Shown here piece by piece: positions 38,934 through 50,420 of a DNA stretch of 64,000 bases (its first letter is position 1; each line of letters starts with the position of its first letter). The stretch covers positions 682,001 through 746,000 of the forward strand of contig JBPGPT010000002.1 of the NCBI GenBank assembly GCA_051047955.1. The letters are read 5' to 3'. Source of the DNA: Cystobasidiomycetes sp. EMM_F5 (lineage: Eukaryota). A program made the translations under genes and the position numbers. The notes below the pieces were generated by a model. The model saw nothing but the letters and a program-made list of their open reading frames with translations, searched no databases and had not been told where the DNA came from.

Positions 38934-39258
38934 GCCAGTGCCAGACTTGACTGCATTATCTTAATCAGCCTAGCTCACGCTTTGTTAAAATTGTACATCC
39001 CTCACACAGTGAGGGCCAAATTCAGATAGGTTACGCAAAGGATGTCAGTGGAAGCCTTCGTTGATGGATATCAGAGTATAGTGGAAGCAGGAAAGCGAGT
39101 GAGGCGTCGCTGACTGTGGGCAGAATAGTTAGGCGAATTGCAAATGGGAAACGTAGGATGGACTCTGAAGCGAGTGACAAGCCGAAATTCGTGGACGACT
39201 GCAGGACTGTCAGGTCGGTTGGCTGTTGATCAGCTCGGCAATTGCAAAAGATGCGCAA

Positions 39259-41338
39259 ATGTCGAGCAATACAGAGACTGCCCGCTCTCCTTACGCTGTC
39301 AATGTCCTCATCTATGACGGCCCCGGCGTGTCGCCTTCCTGCCTGCTTCATCTTCGAAAGACACTGACCGCGCTGCTGTCGCCTCGGTATGATATACTCA
39401 CCGTCAGCCCAAAAGCGATAATATCAGACCCATGGACGACAAACTGCGCTCTTGTCTGCTTTCCGGGTGGTCGCGATCTGGGATACCTCTCTTCGCTCGG
39501 TGAAGCAGGATGCAGCAGGATTGCCGACTGGGTCCGCCAAGGCGGTCGTTACCTTGGACTATGCGCTGGCGCTTACTTTGCATGCGGGAGGGTCGAGTTT
39601 GAACAAGGCCGTGCTGGCTACGAAGTCATCGGTGACCGCCTATTGAGGTTCTATCCTGGGACATGCAAAGGAGCAGCTTTCGATGGCTTCGTGTATGACA
39701 CAGAGGAGGGCGCACGAGACGCGTCAATAGATTTGGACTCTGATGTATGGGAGGGCGTGCATGCTAAAGTACCTCTGCCAAATACAATGCATGTCTATCA
39801 TAACGGGGGAGGCTTCTTCGAGGAGACAACCTTTGATGACATTACTATACTTGCGCGCTATACGGACCTCCCGAATCGTCCGCCGGCCGGCGTTCTGTGT
39901 CGAGTAGGATCTGCAGACGCTGGTAAAGCTGTGTTATGGGCCATTCATCCCGAACACCCGCCCGTCAATGACACACCTTCTCCGGCCAAAGGTTCGTCAT
40001 CAGAAACTCGGATACATGCAAGCATTTCTCTCATGAAAGCTACGCTACATCTGCTGGATCTCGACATACCAACAGAGAGACAAGCGCTCATTGGAACTAC
40101 ACCGCTGTTCCTGGCCGCAAGCGAACCTGAAACAGCTGCATTACTGGCAAGCGAGATTCACTCGCGCTTCCCAAACAGCATACCTCCAGAGAGATACATC
40201 GACCTACACGACACCTTCAATTTCTACGGCCAAGCGGAAATGGACTCAATATCTGGACGAGTGCGCAGGATCGAGAACAACGATCTGGATGTTATTGTTT
40301 GCGAGAAGGGAAGTCCGGAGCCTTACAGAACTCCCATATTCGACATCGCCTCCTACCTCTCTCTGCTTACAGCAGCAAGATTAAGCAAAATCTCAAGCTT
40401 CAAGCCCAGTTTTGGTTCGCCTTTATTTTATGGCGAAGTCGTTACGTCAACGCAAACGGTGCTTGAAAAGTATGTTTGTCTCGATTGTCTTATCTTGCCC
40501 TTGTTGACTAAGTCTGTCTGATACAGGAACCCCCGCCTCTTGTCAGCGTTACCATCCGGCTTTGTTTTCGTTGGTTCTCATCAGATAGCGGGTCGCGGAC
40601 GTGGTACCAATAATTGGCTGTCGCCTCCCGGATGTCTGCAGTTCTCACTAGTCCTGCGTGCACCGAAGTCACTCGGCCCAAAGCTCGTGTTCGTCCAATA
40701 CTTGTTCGGTTTGAGCGTGATCGAAGCTGTTCGAAGACTGCACGGCTACGAGAATGTCGACATGCGCTTGAAATGGCCAAATGACATATACGCTGATCTC
40801 GGCGAAGAACATGGAGGGCTGAGAAAAGTCGGAGGAATTCTCGTGAATTCGATGTTTGCTGGAGGCGATTTCACAGTCATTATAGGTCAGTTGGCAAGCC
40901 CTTCAATGCCAATCTCTCGTACTAAATTTCGATGTAGGGTGTGGAATCAATACTACAAATTCCGGACCGACAACGTCTCTGCTGGACCTCATCACCTCCC
41001 ACAATCACAGAACGGGCGCCAATCTACCAGCAATATCGCAAGAACAACTGCTCGCGAATATTTTGGCACAGTTCGAGTTGTTCTGGTCTCTCTTTGAATC
41101 GGAGGGCGACTTTGGTCCGTTTGCTCGACTCTATACGAATCGCTGGCTACACTCCGATAAGGAAGTAGTGGTACAAGAGACAGGTCAACGTGTCCGCATC
41201 ATAGGCCTCACGCCTGAGAACGGCATGCTCAGAACGCAAGTTCTAGGCTCTACCGATGCTACTCCGACTTTTGTAGACTTACAGCCTGACGGTAACTCCT
41301 TCGACATGATGCAAGGTCTCCTAAAAGCCAAGCGTTGA
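39259..41338 (+). CDS. BPL1: Biotin-protein ligase / holocarboxylase synthetase (BPL_N + catalytic domain)
   Basis: NVLIYDGPG, FPGGRD, YLGLCAGAY, VTSTQT, QIAGRGRGTNNWLSP, KWPNDIY, KVGGIL, LQPDGNSFDMM. Confidence 0.95.
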
Positions 41339-41415
41339 AAACTGCTTACATCCGCTTGTCCAAACCCGAACTTGTCGTTATCAGAGCGAGGTGTCATTCG
41401 GTGACCGTAGACAAA

Positions 41416-43354
41416 TTATGCTGAGGCATCCGAATTCTCTGTTGCCGCCCCCGCAACAGCTCTGTCTTTCTTCCTGGAAGATGCTTTGGCATTCTTCAAC
41501 TCGGCCTGCTTGCGTTTACTTCGCTTAGAGCCACTGCCGCCACCAATCGAGCCAACTGTAGCCGAAACGTCCTTTCGGTCTACTGGCTTTCTTCGCAACT
41601 GCTTCTTCTCCTTTTGCGATGGCGCAGGTAAAGCAAGCATCCACTCTGGCACTTCGCAGCCTGAATTACGCATGACATTCACGATAGACCTCAGGAAGGC
41701 CGCATCATCTCGCGTGAAGAAAGTGACAGCGCGCCCTGTGCGTCCAGCTCGTCCAGTCCTGCCTATTCGGTGGATGTAGCTCTGCACGCTTTGTGGGAAG
41801 TCGTAGCTGCATAGCCATGAATCAATTCAAGTTCGAGGGGACGGCATGACAAGAGCGAGACATACTTTATAACGAGCTCGACTCCACGGAAGTCGATACC
41901 ACGGCTCATGACGTCGGTACAGACGAGCGCCCAGATTTGACTGTCGGCGAATCGGCGGACTAGAGAGTCGCGCTCTTCCTTTGATCTTCCGGAGTGCATC
42001 ACGTCGCTCTTGACATCGTAGGCAACCAGCTCTTTGTAGAGATCTTGCGCGCGGTCAATGGATTGTACAAAGATGAGCGTTGGTGGAACCAGACCTCCAG
42101 CCTTGATCATGTTTCGAAGGGCTAAAAGCTTGCCATTCTCATTGCCTGCAAATGTCATTTCTTGCGTAATGCTTCTCGACGCGGAGTCACTGCGGTGCCT
42201 TGTCAGTATGCGGCGGATGAAGTCTCAACAACCTTTCTGACCTTCCACCGATAATGACTCGCACCATGTCGCTGCCCATCACACTCTTTGCTAATTCTTC
42301 CACGCCAGAAGGAATCGTAGCGCTGAACATAGCCTTTCGCAATTGGGCATTCTGACATGCGGCGATAATTTCGTCGGTTTGTTCCAGTAGGCCCAGCTCG
42401 AATAAGCTGTTTAGAAAACGGCATGATCATGATCAGATATCTGAACAAGCACGAGCACAAATGTCAAAAGCTTACCGATCAGCCTCGTCCAAGACCAGGT
42501 ACTGGATACGGTCAAACTTGATCTTTCCCGCTTTGATGGCGTACACCATCTTCAGGGGAGTTGTGATCAGAACATCGGCTTGATTTACTACTTCGTCATC
42601 GTCCAATGTGCTGTCTTCATCATCCTCGCCGAAGATCGCGACCTTCCATTCGTCTTCTGCGTGTAGCTTGCTGGCTTCGGTGTAGACTTGCCGCGCCAGT
42701 TCCCGAGTTGGCTCCACTACCAACGCCATCGGCCCTCTGCTGCCCTCGTTGTCTGCATCTCTCGCTAAAAGCAGCAGAGGCAGCAGAAACGCCAATGTCT
42801 TTCCAGATCCAGTTGGTGCACATGCGAGCAAGTCACGCTCGGCGTGAATGATACTTGCAGCTTGCATTTGAATCGGTGTCGGACCAACAATAGCCATAGC
42901 CGCTAGATTCGCTTGCACATCTTCGCTCATGTCTGCGAACTCTGAGAAGGTAGGCCACAATGGTGGAATATCGCTGCCTGTACATCTGATGCGATGCATT
43001 CTGCGAAGAGTTGTAGAGAAGTCGGAGGCATCTGTGACTAATTACTTAGCTTACGCATAGACAGCACGTATTGATACACTACCTTCGACCCTTTCGCTGT
43101 CTGCGTTCACATTTTTTCGTTTTCGTTTTCTAGTAATGCCCGCATTGCCAGTCGCCTCGTTATGATGCTCTTGCACCAATCTGCTTGTACTTGCTACTGG
43201 CTTGCGATTTCATTTCCGTCAATACTGTCCAAGCAATCCATAGACGCAGTGGCGGACCTACCTGGCTTTCAGCAGGCAGAGTTGGCTGGGGTGGGTTCTT
43301 TCTCTTGAAGCGCGTTCCAGCAGTGAGCATACGGAATGCGCTGGATGTGTCCAT
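41416..43354 (-). CDS. ROK1: DEAD-box RNA helicase Rok1/DDX52
   Basis: [11 protein letters not shown] start; [58 protein letters not shown]. Confidence 0.92.
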
Positions 43355-43459: not shown

Positions 43460-44523
<1,064 letters not shown>

Positions 44524-44873
44524 GGCTTCGGAAGCTTCGGAAGTGCGGAGTGTTTTGTACATCTAAGGGCAGCCTTTTGGACGAAACGCTTAGTGCAAAC
44601 GGCCATGTATGGAAGTCTGATACACACAATGGGTCGATCAACTCTAGCGAATGTATGTGTATTTCTCGTAGGGATTGCGCAACTCCGCGAGCTTCTTGCC
44701 CGCTGTTGTCCCGAAGACTAGCATTTGCAACGGTTGGTTGACGGGCGCTTGTGACAGAACATATTATTAGTTAGGATGAATGGTGTGTGTAGGCTCTTCC
44801 GATGCAGCCATGCAGCCCTTGCCTTGACTGTCTTTTGCACATATACCAACACGACGGCACTTGCAATCAGCCC

Positions 44874-46862
44874 ATGTCAAAGGACAGCCATCTGCTCAGT
44901 GCAACGAGCGATGGCGAGCCATTTTCTGCTGAAGATGATGATACTGAAGGCCCGTCCAAGATAGTCCGCCAGAATGCGTTATCATCATCAAAGCGGACGA
45001 TTCGTCTGCAGCCTCTCGAGCTGGAGATGGACCCGGTAGTCGCCTGGGCGTACCGACCATCTGTACTGGTCATACTGTCCATCATAGCTGGTTCCACCGT
45101 CCTTTTCGCTTATCACACAGAGAATCTCGTCGTACCTCGAAAGGTCTGAAGCTGTCCACAATTGACAGGTTTTGTCACTGAAACGCCACCACTTCAGGTC
45201 AAGTCTCAAGCTGGCCTAATCACAGCCCTGCTAGGGTTTCTCTTAGTCTCTGTCATCAACTTCCGCGATGGTCCCTACAAGCGTCCTCACCCAGCAGTCT
45301 GGCGTTCGTTGAGTGCACACGAAGACAGACAGGGTATGCTGATATAATGGTGTTGCACAGGAGCGGTTCTCGGGAGCAACGTCCTGTACTGTATGACTCT
45401 GGCGTATCTGCTTTGGCAGGATGACGCGCACGGACGCGAATTTGTACAATATTTTGACCCGAGGCTCGACCAGCCCGCGCGCGAGCGAAGCTATGGCCAA
45501 AATTGCGACTTTACGCTTAACAATCTATACAACGGTCTGGATCTGTTTGCATTGGCGCACTTTGTCGGCTGGTTCGGCAAAGCTGTGATACTCCGAGACT
45601 TCTGGTTCTGCCTGGTTCTGTCTGTGATGTTTGAAGTATGCTTTCAGTCTGTCAATCCACGTAAGAACAGGTTTATGCTGACGTGTCTGTTACAGATTAC
45701 CGAACTCTCTTTGAGTCATCAGATTGCAAACTTTCAAGGTGAGCCCGGAGTCTGCTGACGCAAGTCTTGCTGAGGCGAATGCACACATGGCGAATATGCT
45801 GCAGAGTGTTGGTACGTCTCGCTGAACTGATCGTCTAATGTGATACAACACGCTGATGCACCTTTTCAACTTGTCAGGTGGGACCGATGGATCCTGGACG
45901 TTTGCGTATGCAACCTTGGTGGGACGATTCTCGGCTTGCTTACGTGCCATTATCTGGATGTAGTCGTGCGTCTATTGCATTTTCCGGGCAACACATGTCT
46001 TGAGACTCTTCTCCAAATCTATTTGTAGCCCTTTTCATGGCAAGGCTTCCGCAAACGACGATTTGGGCGGATGTTCGAGCCACTGACTCCCTCAGAATGG
46101 ACGCAATTCGAATGGAAGAGTACAAAGCGGTTTCGCAATTATCTGTCGATCGTCTGTCTTCTCTCCACCTTTCTCCTCAGCGAACTCAACGTCTTCTACC
46201 TGAAGTAAGGTTTTTGGCAAACAAACGGTCTCGTTTTATGAGACTGATGTTGTGTTTCAAAGACAACTTCTCTGGCTGCCTGCAGAACATCCGATCGTTA
46301 CGATCCGGCTAGCTGCCACTTTCGCGTGGGCACTCCCTGCAACGGTGAGTGCCAGCAGTGTTTCATCGCAAAATTGCTGACTGACGCTCAACATTAACAG
46401 GCGGAGTTCTATCATTATGTAAAGCAACGACAGACTCGGGAGAAAGAGGCACTAGCTGATAATATGACAGGTCACATATTCTAAGCGAGTGAAGCGCTTA
46501 GGGTCACATGCAGTCATGCTGTTCAGCACGGTTGCCCTCGAGTCACTGATAGTGCTCAAGGTTTGTCTCGTCTGCGTTGTATGCCAATCGGCATTTGCTG
46601 AGTCCATTTTCAGTGGTCCACCGGCAAATTTCCGGAACCCGCGTCGAAACGTGTCAAGGTCTTCTGGACGGTATTCATAGTTGCGTTAGTAGCGTATCCC
46701 ATCTTCAGATTTGGTCTCCGCAAACAGGTCAGTGCCGGCAAAGCATCTGGGCGGAACACACCAACAGGGCGCAGCACACCCGATGGATCCAGGACTCCAA
46801 CGAGTGCCTCATCTTTCATAACCCAGCAGAAGGCTAGGGCCAGCGATCGTAAGATACGGTAA
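44874..46862 (+). CDS. Phosphatidylserine synthase, base-exchange (PSS/PTDSS) type, about 11 exons
   Basis: Spliced [92 protein letters not shown]. Confidence 0.9.
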
Positions 46863-46980: not shown

Positions 46981-48120
46981 TCAGGCAATGACATCAAGCC
47001 ATTTGGTTCTGCCTTTATCCCTTATGATACTGAGAATCTGCATGATCACTGAAGGTCCTAAAGCGCGCGCTTCAGGATCCATGTACGAAGCAGATGGCGA
47101 TAGTTGTTCACAGTCTGCAAGATTCAGACTTTCCAGGTCGTTCCATCGATTGCTCCAATTCAGAGACGTGATATCCTCCCAGGATAGCCACGGCGAATGC
47201 GACAAATCTAGGAAGCGTAATGACGGAAGCGATTTGCTGAGTGCCCGCAGAGGCGAGAATAGGGTGCATGTCATTCCGGATAAATCGAGGGAGGTGAGAG
47301 ACGTGGCTGCTAGCAGATTTACCAGACCGGCATTGACATCAAGCGTGCTGTGCGACAGAACAAGCGTACGCAAACGTGGCATGCGGCGCAGTGGATCTTT
47401 GCCCTTGAGCATGCGATTTACCAACAGCAATCTAGCCAGCATGTTTTGGCTGACGGTGCTGCCGTATAGATCGAGTTCCGACAGCAAACGCTCAGGAGGA
47501 AGGATTTGTGTATTGAGGGGTCCTTCGTCCCATTCAGTCTCTTCGGGTGCGCTTGCGCTACCTAACACATCGTCATCGTCATCCCGCTCGAGCAAGAGTG
47601 CCTCGACCTCGCCATCGTCTAGCGGAGATATATGCGGCGCATAATGCACAAGCGCTATGCGTAGAGAAGCGGGAAGGTACGCTACTTCGTCCAGCAATTC
47701 CGCGTCATCGTGTAGACGCTCCAGAATGCAAGCTAGACATTCTTCTCGGAGGGTAGATGGTCTGAATGCGGGAGGCTTGAGCACGGCAGAGTTAGTTGCC
47801 CGTTGTCTCGTAGCAGACCGGGCGGCTGTACGTTGTGGTTTCTTGTTGTTCTGGAGCTCTTTCCACCAGGATTGCGGCACTGGACCCGCTGTTCGCGATC
47901 TTGACGCGGCCTGCAGTTCCATGGCTTGACCTAGCTCGTACAGCATACCGGGCGTGAGGTCTGACCTGCTGAGGCTGGCTGCTGATATCTGACTGCCCCC
48001 GTCGACGGCATTGCGAACTCGAGTCCGACGATTACGTTCTTCGATGCGATAGGCTTCAAGTCGGGCTGCGACAGCATTCACCGCATCGCTGGGACTGGAT
48101 GCTGGGGCTCTCCATGGCAT
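46981..48120 (-). CDS. Leucine-rich-repeat (RNI-like) protein
   Basis: 379-aa ORF with LRRs LSELDLYGS, LRTLVLSHS, LTSLDLSGM, LRFLDLSHSP, LESLNLADC. Confidence 0.8.
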   Translation of the reverse strand: MPWRAPASSPSDAVNAVAARLEAYRIEERNRRTRVRNAVDGGSQISAASLSRSDLTPGMLYELGQAMELQAASRSRTAGPVPQSWWKELQNNKKPQRTAARSATRQRATNSAVLKPPAFRPSTLREECLACILERLHDDAELLDEVAYLPASLRIALVHYAPHISPLDDGEVEALLLERDDDDDVLGSASAPEETEWDEGPLNTQILPPERLLSELDLYGSTVSQNMLARLLLVNRMLKGKDPLRRMPRLRTLVLSHSTLDVNAGLVNLLAATSLTSLDLSGMTCTLFSPLRALSKSLPSLRFLDLSHSPWLSWEDITSLNWSNRWNDLESLNLADCEQLSPSASYMDPEARALGPSVIMQILSIIRDKGRTKWLDVIA

Positions 48121-48582
48121 GAAATGAGCGCTGGGTCACCACCAGGAGCAATCAACAAAGCCGCTTTTGATGATGTCCGTCAATTGGATTTCCGCTGCAT
48201 CGGAGTTCGGGTCAGCCCGACTTTCAACTGCAACCCAATGCCGCTTAGTAACGCATTTGCCTTCAATGGTCGCAGTGTCCCGGCTGCAGGCAAATACGCG
48301 AGACCCGGAAGGGGGAGGTACCGCCAAACACCGCCCGCGTGAAATGATGGCCGCTGAGAAAGAACTGAAGCTGTCTCTTATTTCTCGAGAGTCGCATCTT
48401 ACTTCTGCAAACACACTCTTCTCGTCTTTTCTTCTCGCTTCCCCTTCTGCTCCTCAGCCGATAGACGTAACCCCGCAAATCTCAACCCCGAGGTCGGCAT
48501 GACTCATCTCGCAAACGCAACAGAGGATAGGGTTGGCTGACTTGCCCTGCGCATCGCCTTCACGTTATGTGTACAAGCAGCC

Positions 48583-50420
48583 ATGGGATTCCAGCACTGG
48601 ATCTCCTCGGCGGCTAAAGCCGTGACAGGCTTCTTCAAGCCACCAACAGTCGACGTGCATGACAACAATCCAAGAGTCTTTCCGGGCGGCGAGACTGAAA
48701 ATGACGCTGCCCGAGCTTTCGAAGGTGCTGCACAGGCACTGAATCTTCCGCAGACTGCTGCCAACGTTGGCCAAGTAGCAATGCACGAAGCCAATCCTCC
48801 ACAAACTTCGGCCAATCTCTTACAAGGAGCAGCACACGAAGTCAATTTTCCACAAACTTCGGCCAACCTCTTACAAGGAGCAGCACACGAAGCCAATCCT
48901 CCACAAACTTCGGCCAACCTCTTACAAGCAGCAGCACACGAAGCCAATTTTCCACAGACAGCATACAACCTCATGCAAGGAGCTGCACGCGCAGCCGACC
49001 TTCCACAGACTGCCGCCAACATTGGCGAAAACGCCGTCCATGAAGCAGTGCAGAGCAAACCCGCTGACACTCTGGCAAGCGGGGCCTACCATTTTTTTAC
49101 GGGCACTGGCATAGGCAGCCTGCTCACAGGCGCCGGATCGCTGGTCCCTGGTTGGGGGAAGAAGAACGAGGCCGAGGACAGAGGGAGAGCTGCCCTACAA
49201 ACTGCAGCCGGCCAGCAACGCCAGGCTGAAGCTCATGGCAGAGCTGCAGAAACTACTGCCGTGAGTCAGAGAGCACAGGCCGAGGCTCATGCGAGAGCAG
49301 AAGAGGCTACAGCAGCGACAATCAATCAGCAGCGTGCTGTCGAAACGCAGCAGCGAGTCGAAGAACACGTCCACCGACGCAAGCTCGCTATTCCAGCGGA
49401 TCTGGAGGCAGAAGAGGCGAGAGCACTTAAAATGGCCAGGCGTGGGGCCGATGCCTTGGAACTAAAGATCGATACATTTGCTCCTTCCGTTGATAATAAT
49501 ACGACAGTAGAAATCGCAGCGATTGTCGACGGGTGAGGCTACTGCCTACATTGACGCGTGTTTGCTCGTGACAACAAAACTGAACTAGGTAGCAATAACA
49601 GAGGTATTGGAACGCCTCTCGCAAAACACATGGCGCAACAGTTGGACTTGGTGATAGCCGATGTGAGGTCAGCCCTTCTACAGCAATCACACTATGACCT
49701 GACGGTATTTGAAAGGCAACACACAAATATGGTGCTGGGCGTATTGAAAAGCTGGGCAATGTTGGTGTCTTCGAAAGCTTGGAGCGAATATGGTCTGTCA
49801 GACCACGTCTTATTGGTCAATATAATCAAACACGACTATCCATACTGAAGAAATTGGGGCTTAGCCAGACAGTTCCTGGGTTGCGCGCTTATATCCGTCA
49901 AGGTGCACGGTGGGATGCCATCTATCTGCGCATGGAGCTCGTCATACTTTACATAAGGGACCCAGCAATAAACTCGTCGAATGGTTTTAAGCGTCTCGGC
50001 GCACAGCGTGTCCGGCACGCAGTAATGTGTGGCAATGTCGTAGACCTGCGCAAGAGCATCAATGCAGTTTATTTTACCCCGCCAAGTATTCACTTCTTGG
50101 GCATTGTTACAGATGAACTTCCCCAATTCGTTATAAAGGAAATCTACACGAACAACGAAACGACCCGAGACGGTCATTTCCGCTTCGTCGCGCTCGGAGA
50201 AGGACGTCCGAAGGAAGCGACTGCCGACCAAGTAGGGGACGATGGAGTCTACTATGAAATACTCAGACAAAGCGTTCCTCACCTACGGCAAGAAGCCGGT
50301 TCCGATCGCAAAGATTTAGCCACAGCCTACTGGGACCTTAATGACTGCACTGAAGGCCTGGCCTTCGAACGAGAAGGCAGGTACTGGACACGACCGTTCG
50401 AAGGCGGTGACGAGATGTAG
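48583..50420 (+). CDS. Orphan protein with 17-aa tandem repeats, Gly-rich hydrophobic segment, coiled coil and globular C-terminal domain (3 exons)
   Basis: ORFs 48583, 49558 and 49779 are joined in frame by two GT-AG introns of about 60 nt (VDG/NNRGIG; VIAD/ATHKYG). Confidence 0.6.
48733..49038 (+). repeat. Coding minisatellite, 6 x 51 bp
   Basis: Unit cacgaagccaatcctccacaaacttcggccaa(t/c)ctcttacaaggagcagca; units start at 48733, 48784, 48835, 48886, 48937, 48988; central copies near-identical, flanking copies degenerate. Confidence 0.92.

Follow-up and report, generated by a model that had tools for sequence, protein, structure and literature searches.

The forward strand of the window (the whole 64,000-nucleotide stretch of DNA analyzed here) carries at positions 44874-46862 a gene of the phosphatidylserine synthase (PSS) family, which was confirmed, as a prediction from sequence, to be real and intact. 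Conserved residues, match scores and gene trees support its product being a base-exchange PSS of the PSS2-like subtype, and this enzyme probably converts PE to PS in the ER by a Ca2+-dependent exchange of head groups, as an auxiliary to Cho1. The gene is an under-studied, inherited representative of a known family, one that many basidiomycetes carry and that databases already annotate.

Gene structure

The splice model contains 11 exons and 10 introns and yields an unbroken open reading frame (ORF) of 467 residues, from the ATG at 44874 to a TAA ending at 46862. All the PSS-family signature motifs claimed in the original prediction were found in the spliced protein. The ten introns (introns 1 to 5, 45144-45197, 45304-45360, 45636-45695, 45739-45804 and 45812-45877; introns 6 to 10, 45966-46028, 46205-46262, 46345-46400, 46419-46470 and 46561-46613) are all GT-AG introns of 52-66 nt, and in eight of them a CTRAN word resembling a branch site lies 16-26 nt before the 3' end. 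As a comparator for intron style, the upstream gene DPM1 has six introns of 53-62 nt, and the style of the PSS introns is therefore native. The GC content of the PSS coding sequence is 52%, and that of the window is about 50-54%. The features of the locus, all on the + strand, are as follows.

44874-46862, +: PSS2-type base-exchange phosphatidylserine synthase gene (predicted), 11 exons, 467 aa (splice model; PF03034; 72% identity to P0358)
44874-45143, +: exon 1, residues 1-90, with an acidic tail at the N terminus and the first hydrophobic segment (splice model, P0358 alignment)
45198-45303, +: exon 2, RPH motif; R119 (45282-45284) and H121 (45288-45290), equivalent to PSS1 R95 and H97, kept (alignment; roles from PMC11882778)
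45361-45635, +: exon 3, F188, predicted catalytic H192 (45558-45560), F216 and predicted Ca2+ ligand E217 (45633-45635) (alignment to human chains)
45696-45738, +: exon 4, predicted Ca2+/serine ligand E220, H225, N229 and first base of E232 (alignment)
45805-45811, +: exon 5, a micro-exon of 7 nt that falls midway through the ECWWD motif; missing from public model P0001 (splice model, P0358 alignment)
45878-45965, +: exon 6, D236, predicted Ca2+ ligand D241, C245 and N246 (alignment)
46029-46204, +: exon 7, shortened PS-binding (PH4) segment; R277 kept, P281 (46080-46082) in place of PSS1 Q266; F311 (PSS2-type), E315 and F319 (alignment)
46263-46344, +: exon 8, completes K322 (PSS1 K308); transmembrane segment (alignment)
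46401-46418, +: exon 9 (18 nt), A350 (46401-46403) in place of PSS1 R336 (splice model, alignment)
46471-46560, +: exon 10 (splice model, P0358 alignment)
46614-46862, +: exon 11, last transmembrane segment, Ser/Thr-rich tail and stop (splice model, P0358 alignment)
43460-44523, +: DPM1 (dolichol-phosphate mannose synthase), about 239 aa, six introns and its own stop; separate upstream gene (gene model versus P0001)

All 10 exon junctions were gap-free against P0358, an independent gene model from Cystobasidium minutum that is identical to the spliced window protein at 328 of 453 aligned residues (72%). The junctions were likewise gap-free against P0003, an intron-free Logan protein to whose cluster P0358 belongs; P0003 is without its first approximately 140 residues and shows 76% identity to the window protein over 310 residues. 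Intron 9 was borne out by both relatives. Least certain in the gene model is the start codon: an alternative in-frame ATG lies at 44802, the N terminus of P0358 is 22 residues longer, and the true start could be further upstream. Unnamed read-through ORFs of relatives (P0002 and P0097-P0100) were seen to leave the PSS frame directly after the MFE motif, which suggests that several related genomes have intron 3 at this same position.

A public model from the class Cystobasidiomycetes, P0001 ("dolichol-P-mannose synthesis"), matches the window letter for letter (43460-45960) and combines PF00535 and PF03034 in a single 363-aa protein. This union of domains is what would speak for a real DPM1-PSS fusion, one part of a broader alternative, extremely improbable as a whole, in which the locus is a fusion, a pseudogene, a contaminant or a horizontal transfer from an animal or plant. 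In P0001, a 353-nt intron connects DPM1 with the first half of PSS, exon 2 and the micro-exon are omitted, and the model ends out of frame; the C. minutum orthologue (P0358, "PSS-domain-containing protein") stands alone. Because DPM1 ends at a stop of its own (44521-44523) and yields a full-length model of 239 residues, the fusion in P0001 is most likely a prediction error, and a fusion was rejected on all these grounds. As the model stands, the chimera hides the PSS gene under the DPM1 name. A pseudogene was also rejected: the frameshift that the original prediction had allowed for is absent, there is no internal stop in the ORF, and the junctions with P0358 are gap-free.

Family, catalytic residues and fold

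PF03034 was matched at this locus, in an exon-by-exon profile scan of the genome, with E values of 3e-27 and 1e-17 (98 and 67 bits; the curated cut-off is 25 bits), and at no other locus in the 18.3-Mb genome. Exons 3 and 4 alone scored 105 bits (E value, 5.7e-30) and P0003 scored 282 bits. PF03034 was the only family match at the PSS locus, where neither PF01066 nor a CAPT motif was found.

The predicted catalytic histidine, H192, corresponds to H172 of PSS1 and H200 of PSS2, and in an alignment of 170 rows the predicted Ca2+-ligand positions E217, E220, E232 and D241 correspond to PSS1 E197, E200, E212 and D221. Other residues important for activity, F188, E315 and K322 (PSS1 F168, E301 and K308), are kept. 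Altogether, 11 of 11 catalytic-core positions are conserved (PSS1 D166, F168, H172, E197, E200, N209, E212, D216, D221, N226 and E301), and K308 likewise. The roles of PSS1 H172, E197, E200, D221, F168, E301 and K308 have been described (PMC11882778), as have, in excerpts of PMC12107096, those of PSS2 H200 and E225/E228/E240/D249. Furthermore, F216, F311 and F319 match F224, F324 and F332 of PSS2, where PSS1 has W196 and W297. The same excerpts tie the narrower phenylalanine pocket of PSS2 to its use of PE only, as a structural proposal. By analogy, use of PC by the window enzyme is less likely, given the phenylalanines at the positions of PSS1 W196 and W297.

Comparison with solved structures gave the same order, with P0003 matching human PSS2 at an E value of 6.9e-59 and PSS1 at 2.5e-36. 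An AlphaFold model of P0003 (pLDDT, 84.7) returned five Foldseek matches at an E value of ≤0.001, all of them PSS1 or PSS2; the best was human PSS2 with a TM score of 0.74, the fold being that of the orthologue and not of the spliced window protein. The window protein itself has seven hydrophobic peaks above 1.6. The claim of a base-exchange-type PSS is thus upheld by PF03034, by the catalytic and Ca2+ residues and by the best solved match. Its description as "animal/plant-type" could be sharpened to PSS2-like on the animal side; on the plant side, no plant row is present in the trees, and no plant sequence occurred among 30 proteins looked up.

The window protein resembles human PSS2 (PTDSS2; PDB 9n0x) in its fold, by the orthologue model, and in its catalytic histidine, four acidic Ca2+ ligands and pocket phenylalanines (F196/F224/F324/F332), and animal PSS2 is the sister of the fungal set. 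However, identity to vertebrate PSS2 (platypus row) is about 33%, the PS-binding segment of the window protein is five residues shorter with two feedback residues replaced, and the window enzyme coexists with Cho1, whereas animals are without Cho1. Human PSS1 (PTDSS1; PDB 9b4e and 9kqf) shares all the catalytic residues and the RPH motif but gave the lower score and differs at the W196 and W297 positions.

The PS-feedback site

Inhibition of PSS1 by PS is removed by an alanine change at any one of R95, H97, R262, Q266 and R336 (PMC11882778). Three of these five residues (the R95, H97 and R262 equivalents) are kept in the window protein, while Q266 is replaced by Pro281 and R336 by Ala350, and both replacements are common to the window protein, P0003 and P0358. 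Among named Agaricomycetes, the Q266 equivalent was conserved in 96 of 96 and the R336 equivalent in 95 of 96; the corresponding counts were 31 and 30 of 32 in early-diverging fungi, and 7 and 8 of 8 in other Pucciniomycotina. The PS-binding segment measures 12 residues, versus 17 in 82 of 94 parsed Agaricomycetes and in 6 of 6 parsed animals. No helix was predicted in this segment of P0003, and one was predicted in the control P0014.

It is possible, though we consider it unlikely, that the enzyme is otherwise the same but that the Cystobasidiomycetes clade has lost much of its PS feedback, the cytosolic PS-binding site having eroded so as to leave little product inhibition, as in human gain-of-function mutants. 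Replacement of two inhibition residues that are near-universal in the other fungi compared would fit such a loss, as would the short segment and the missing helix. The helix difference is weak, however, since both models have low confidence there (pLDDT of 45-58 and 35-62), and at least two changes among five sites would be expected about one time in four at the general rate of the clade (23/116; hand arithmetic). The three retained residues also argue against erosion, and the segment, being rich in Arg, may bind PS in a different manner. If the site were truly lost, the enzyme would offer a naturally occurring means of studying how PSS is regulated, with a bearing on the Lenz-Majewski gain-of-function mutants, and possibly an unregulated PS-producing tool.

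Variation in this segment was also observed in other Pucciniomycotina. In Mixia (P0007), it is shortened to 14 residues and is without the Q266 equivalent. The rust proteins (among P0004-P0012) have insertions in the segment and no Arg at the R262 position, and counts for R262 hinge on gap placement.

Distribution and origin

A search with P0003 returned 95 proteins, 57 of them with an organism name (hand count). The named fungal matches comprised 24 Mucoromycota in the wide sense (Mortierellaceae, Glomeromycota and Endogonales), 9 Pucciniomycotina, 7 Agaricomycetes, 6 chytrids, 2 Blastocladiomycota, 1 member of the Zoopagomycota and 1 microsporidian; outside the fungi, 3 animals and 4 oomycetes were matched. 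A profile of 23 fungal rows found 295 proteins, and the 120 listed included 94 named Agaricomycetes from all main orders, 3 other fungi and 23 proteins without an organism. Exons 3 and 4 gave 482 matches (150 listed, without names) in a representative library, a number that shows breadth only. Many of the fungal orthologues carry the database name "phosphatidylserine synthase 2." The supposition that this gene is peculiar to its lineage was therefore not borne out: orthologues occur across Agaricomycetes (94 of the 120 listed), rusts, Mixia and most early-diverging phyla, which lowers the novelty of the find. Possession of a base-exchange PSS is not special to this genome and is a fact already present in database annotations.

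No ascomycete, tremellomycete (Cryptococcus), Candida, smut, Microbotryomycete or Mucorales species was among the named matches listed, a hint that base-exchange PSS may have been lost in those groups. The link drawn in the original prediction to Cho1 as an antifungal target proved weak in this light; with no Ascomycota, Cryptococcus or Candida among the named matches listed, the drug rationale for those yeasts is untouched. The Cho1-only picture holds for model yeasts, and the sequence record adds to it a second enzyme, of the animal type, in mushrooms, rusts and early fungi alike.

Reviews of antifungal targets assign PS synthesis to Cho1 in fungi and to base exchange in mammals (PMC10970773, PMC5872331 and PMC11993586). 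An Agaricus bisporus protein, AGABI2DRAFT_224623 (P0320), is named "base-exchange-type phosphatidylserine synthase" in an excerpt of a 2024 study, where its transcript rises in storage (PMC11355595). "PTDSS, EC 2.7.8.8" is given for Mortierella in PMC3234268, a label that is ambiguous between the two PS enzymes, and six supplementary files of PMC5922974 on Rhodosporidium contained no match for the searched terms. A search of the open-licence literature found no work on the biochemistry, genetics or phylogeny of any base-exchange PSS from a fungus.

The window protein is 72% identical to its C. minutum orthologue, 47-57% to those of other Pucciniomycotina and approximately 42% to those of Agaricomycetes and Mucoromycota. 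A careful tree of 31 rows (LG+G4) was built without unnamed rows, the microsporidian, Branchiostoma, Besnoitia and redundant taxa; its single PSS1 row sits on a long branch. Supports were 100/100 for the grouping with C. minutum, 100/100 for Pucciniomycotina, 100/99 for Basidiomycota, 88/92 for fungi and 95/93 for fungi plus animal PSS2, and a quick tree of 57 rows agreed. Since the gene tree follows the species tree, vertical inheritance within Pucciniomycotina, next to Cystobasidium, is supported. The same placement agrees with the dikaryan host that had been proposed, and the species-congruent tree is better evidence than the introns for ancient retention, which the original prediction had favored over transfer or contamination. 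Transfer and contamination were rejected on the tree, the native introns and GC content, and the fungal neighbors on a contig of more than 746 kb.

The enzyme is a direct orthologue of the proteins of C. minutum (P0358), Mixia, rusts, Agaricomycetes (such as A. bisporus AGABI2DRAFT_224623), Mortierellaceae, Glomeromycota, chytrids and Blastocladiomycota. Within this set, the window protein and Cystobasidium combine a long stem with the Q266-to-Pro and R336-to-Ala changes and the shortened segment, features found in part in Mixia. The stem of the Cystobasidiomycetes clade measures 0.62-0.95 changes per column, and 23 of 116 pan-fungal conserved columns are changed in this clade versus 10-14 in rusts and Atractiella. 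Changes near the catalytic motif comprise L221, R237, L247 and L255, including a His-to-Arg change directly after ECWWD. Given the long stem and the number of changed columns, the specificity of the clade's enzyme may have shifted.

An alternative would be a repurposed head-group specificity, as in the Toxoplasma phosphatidylthreonine synthase (TgPTS), which derived from a PSS and provides a precedent in excerpts of PMC4643901. TgPTS belongs to the same family and has the ECWWD motif, and the stem and the four changes beside the catalytic motif are compatible with an analogous history. We nevertheless judge this very improbable. TgPTS is an alveolate/oomycete paralogue beside a retained PSS, whereas the window gene is a single copy nested among ordinary fungal PSS genes. 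According to the same excerpts, phosphatidylthreonine synthase replaces conserved residues (Asn to Glu, His to Trp and Cys to Ser); H225, N229 and C245, which may be the positions concerned, are kept in the window protein.

CHO1 and other phospholipid genes of the genome

The original prediction had proposed a second PS pathway, and a search of the genome for CHO1 agreed with it. Four CDP-alcohol phosphotransferase loci were found. The best TIGR00473 match (below cut-off, exon by exon) lies at G000:C232:343401-344480 and splices to an ORF of 266-269 residues with the complete CAPT motif (DxxDGxxAR...GxxxDxxxD), as defined in an excerpt of PMC8727905. Its only matches among solved structures are CDP-DAG:serine phosphatidyltransferases. 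Judged by these sequence features, this locus is an intact CHO1, and with it in the same genome both PS routes coexist in this yeast-like basidiomycete. Cho1 (PF01066) makes the same product, PS, but belongs to an unrelated family and uses CDP-DAG as substrate. The remaining CDP-alcohol phosphotransferase loci we take, from their motifs, to be PIS1, CRD1 and a CPT/EPT type (L010).

Four loci of the PS-decarboxylase family were also found (G000:C112:398434-398970, C179:125854-126980, C232:163823-164212 and C90:246069-246769), as compared with two in budding yeast. The genome has one choline/ethanolamine kinase locus. Among the cytidylyltransferase-type loci (L012-L018), one is presumably PCT1-like (L013), two NMNAT-like and one PPAT-like, by their motifs. 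Exon-by-exon profile searches of the 253-contig draft, in which a miss is quite possible, detected no ethanolamine-phosphate cytidylyltransferase of the ECT1 type; either such a miss or a genuine gap in the ethanolamine branch of the Kennedy pathway could account for this result. If ECT1 were truly absent, PE would come mainly from the PS decarboxylases and the PSS enzyme would give no net PS.

Base exchange is reversible, and the main cellular reaction might accordingly be another exchange, of ethanolamine (or choline) into PS/PE as salvage or remodelling to PE, or a PSS/PSD cycle that frees ethanolamine, with no net PS synthesis. PS is already supplied by CHO1, the PS-decarboxylase loci number four, and ECT1 escaped detection while the kinase, the PCT1-like and the CPT/EPT-type genes did not, all of which would suit this scheme. 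We still find it improbable: the search was a loose first look in which ECT1 is easily missed, and the serine-binding residues E220, E315 and K322 are kept.

Proposed reaction

We favor PE-to-PS exchange, in which this single-copy, PSS2-type ER-membrane enzyme would replace the head group of a phospholipid already present with L-serine, the most likely substrate being PE. Ca2+ bound by E217, E220, E232 and D241 would order the acidic pocket, and H192 would activate the serine hydroxyl, which would attack the lipid phosphodiester and release ethanolamine. The ER location, dimeric state, Ca2+ dependence, chemistry and PE preference are carried over by analogy from the human enzymes. That its role is auxiliary is an inference: Cho1 (CDP-DAG plus serine) would make PS de novo, and the base-exchange PSS would offer a CTP-independent route that re-balances PE and PS.

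CHO1 is reported as lost in Blastocladiomycota in an excerpt of PMC10629195, and two Blastocladiomycota (P0036 and P0050) have a base-exchange PSS, a possible case of complementary loss. At the phylum level, this pattern hints that a fungal PSS could be the sole source of PS. A wider scenario, which we regard as doubtful, would join these observations: most basidiomycetes and early-diverging fungi would have PS synthases of two unrelated kinds. The base-exchange enzyme would go back to the opisthokont ancestor and have disappeared from ascomycetes and some yeasts, while Blastocladiomycota would have lost CHO1 instead. The Cystobasidiomycetes copy would have shed its PS-sensing site and become feedback-insensitive, and it might carry most of the ethanolamine exchange in a genome that has no ECT1.

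Neighboring genes

Upstream of DPM1 lie what we take, from their motifs, to be a biotin-protein-ligase-like gene (39178-41338, + strand) and a DEAD-box helicase gene (41411-43041, - strand). Downstream, a convergent gene with leucine-rich repeats (46981-48135, - strand; weak LRR_4 match, below cut-off) has its stop approximately 120 nt from that of PSS. It is followed by an ORF of approximately 330 residues (48541-49536, + strand) with about five tandem 17-residue Ala/Gln/Asn-rich repeats and then an Ala/Gln/Glu-rich helical stretch.
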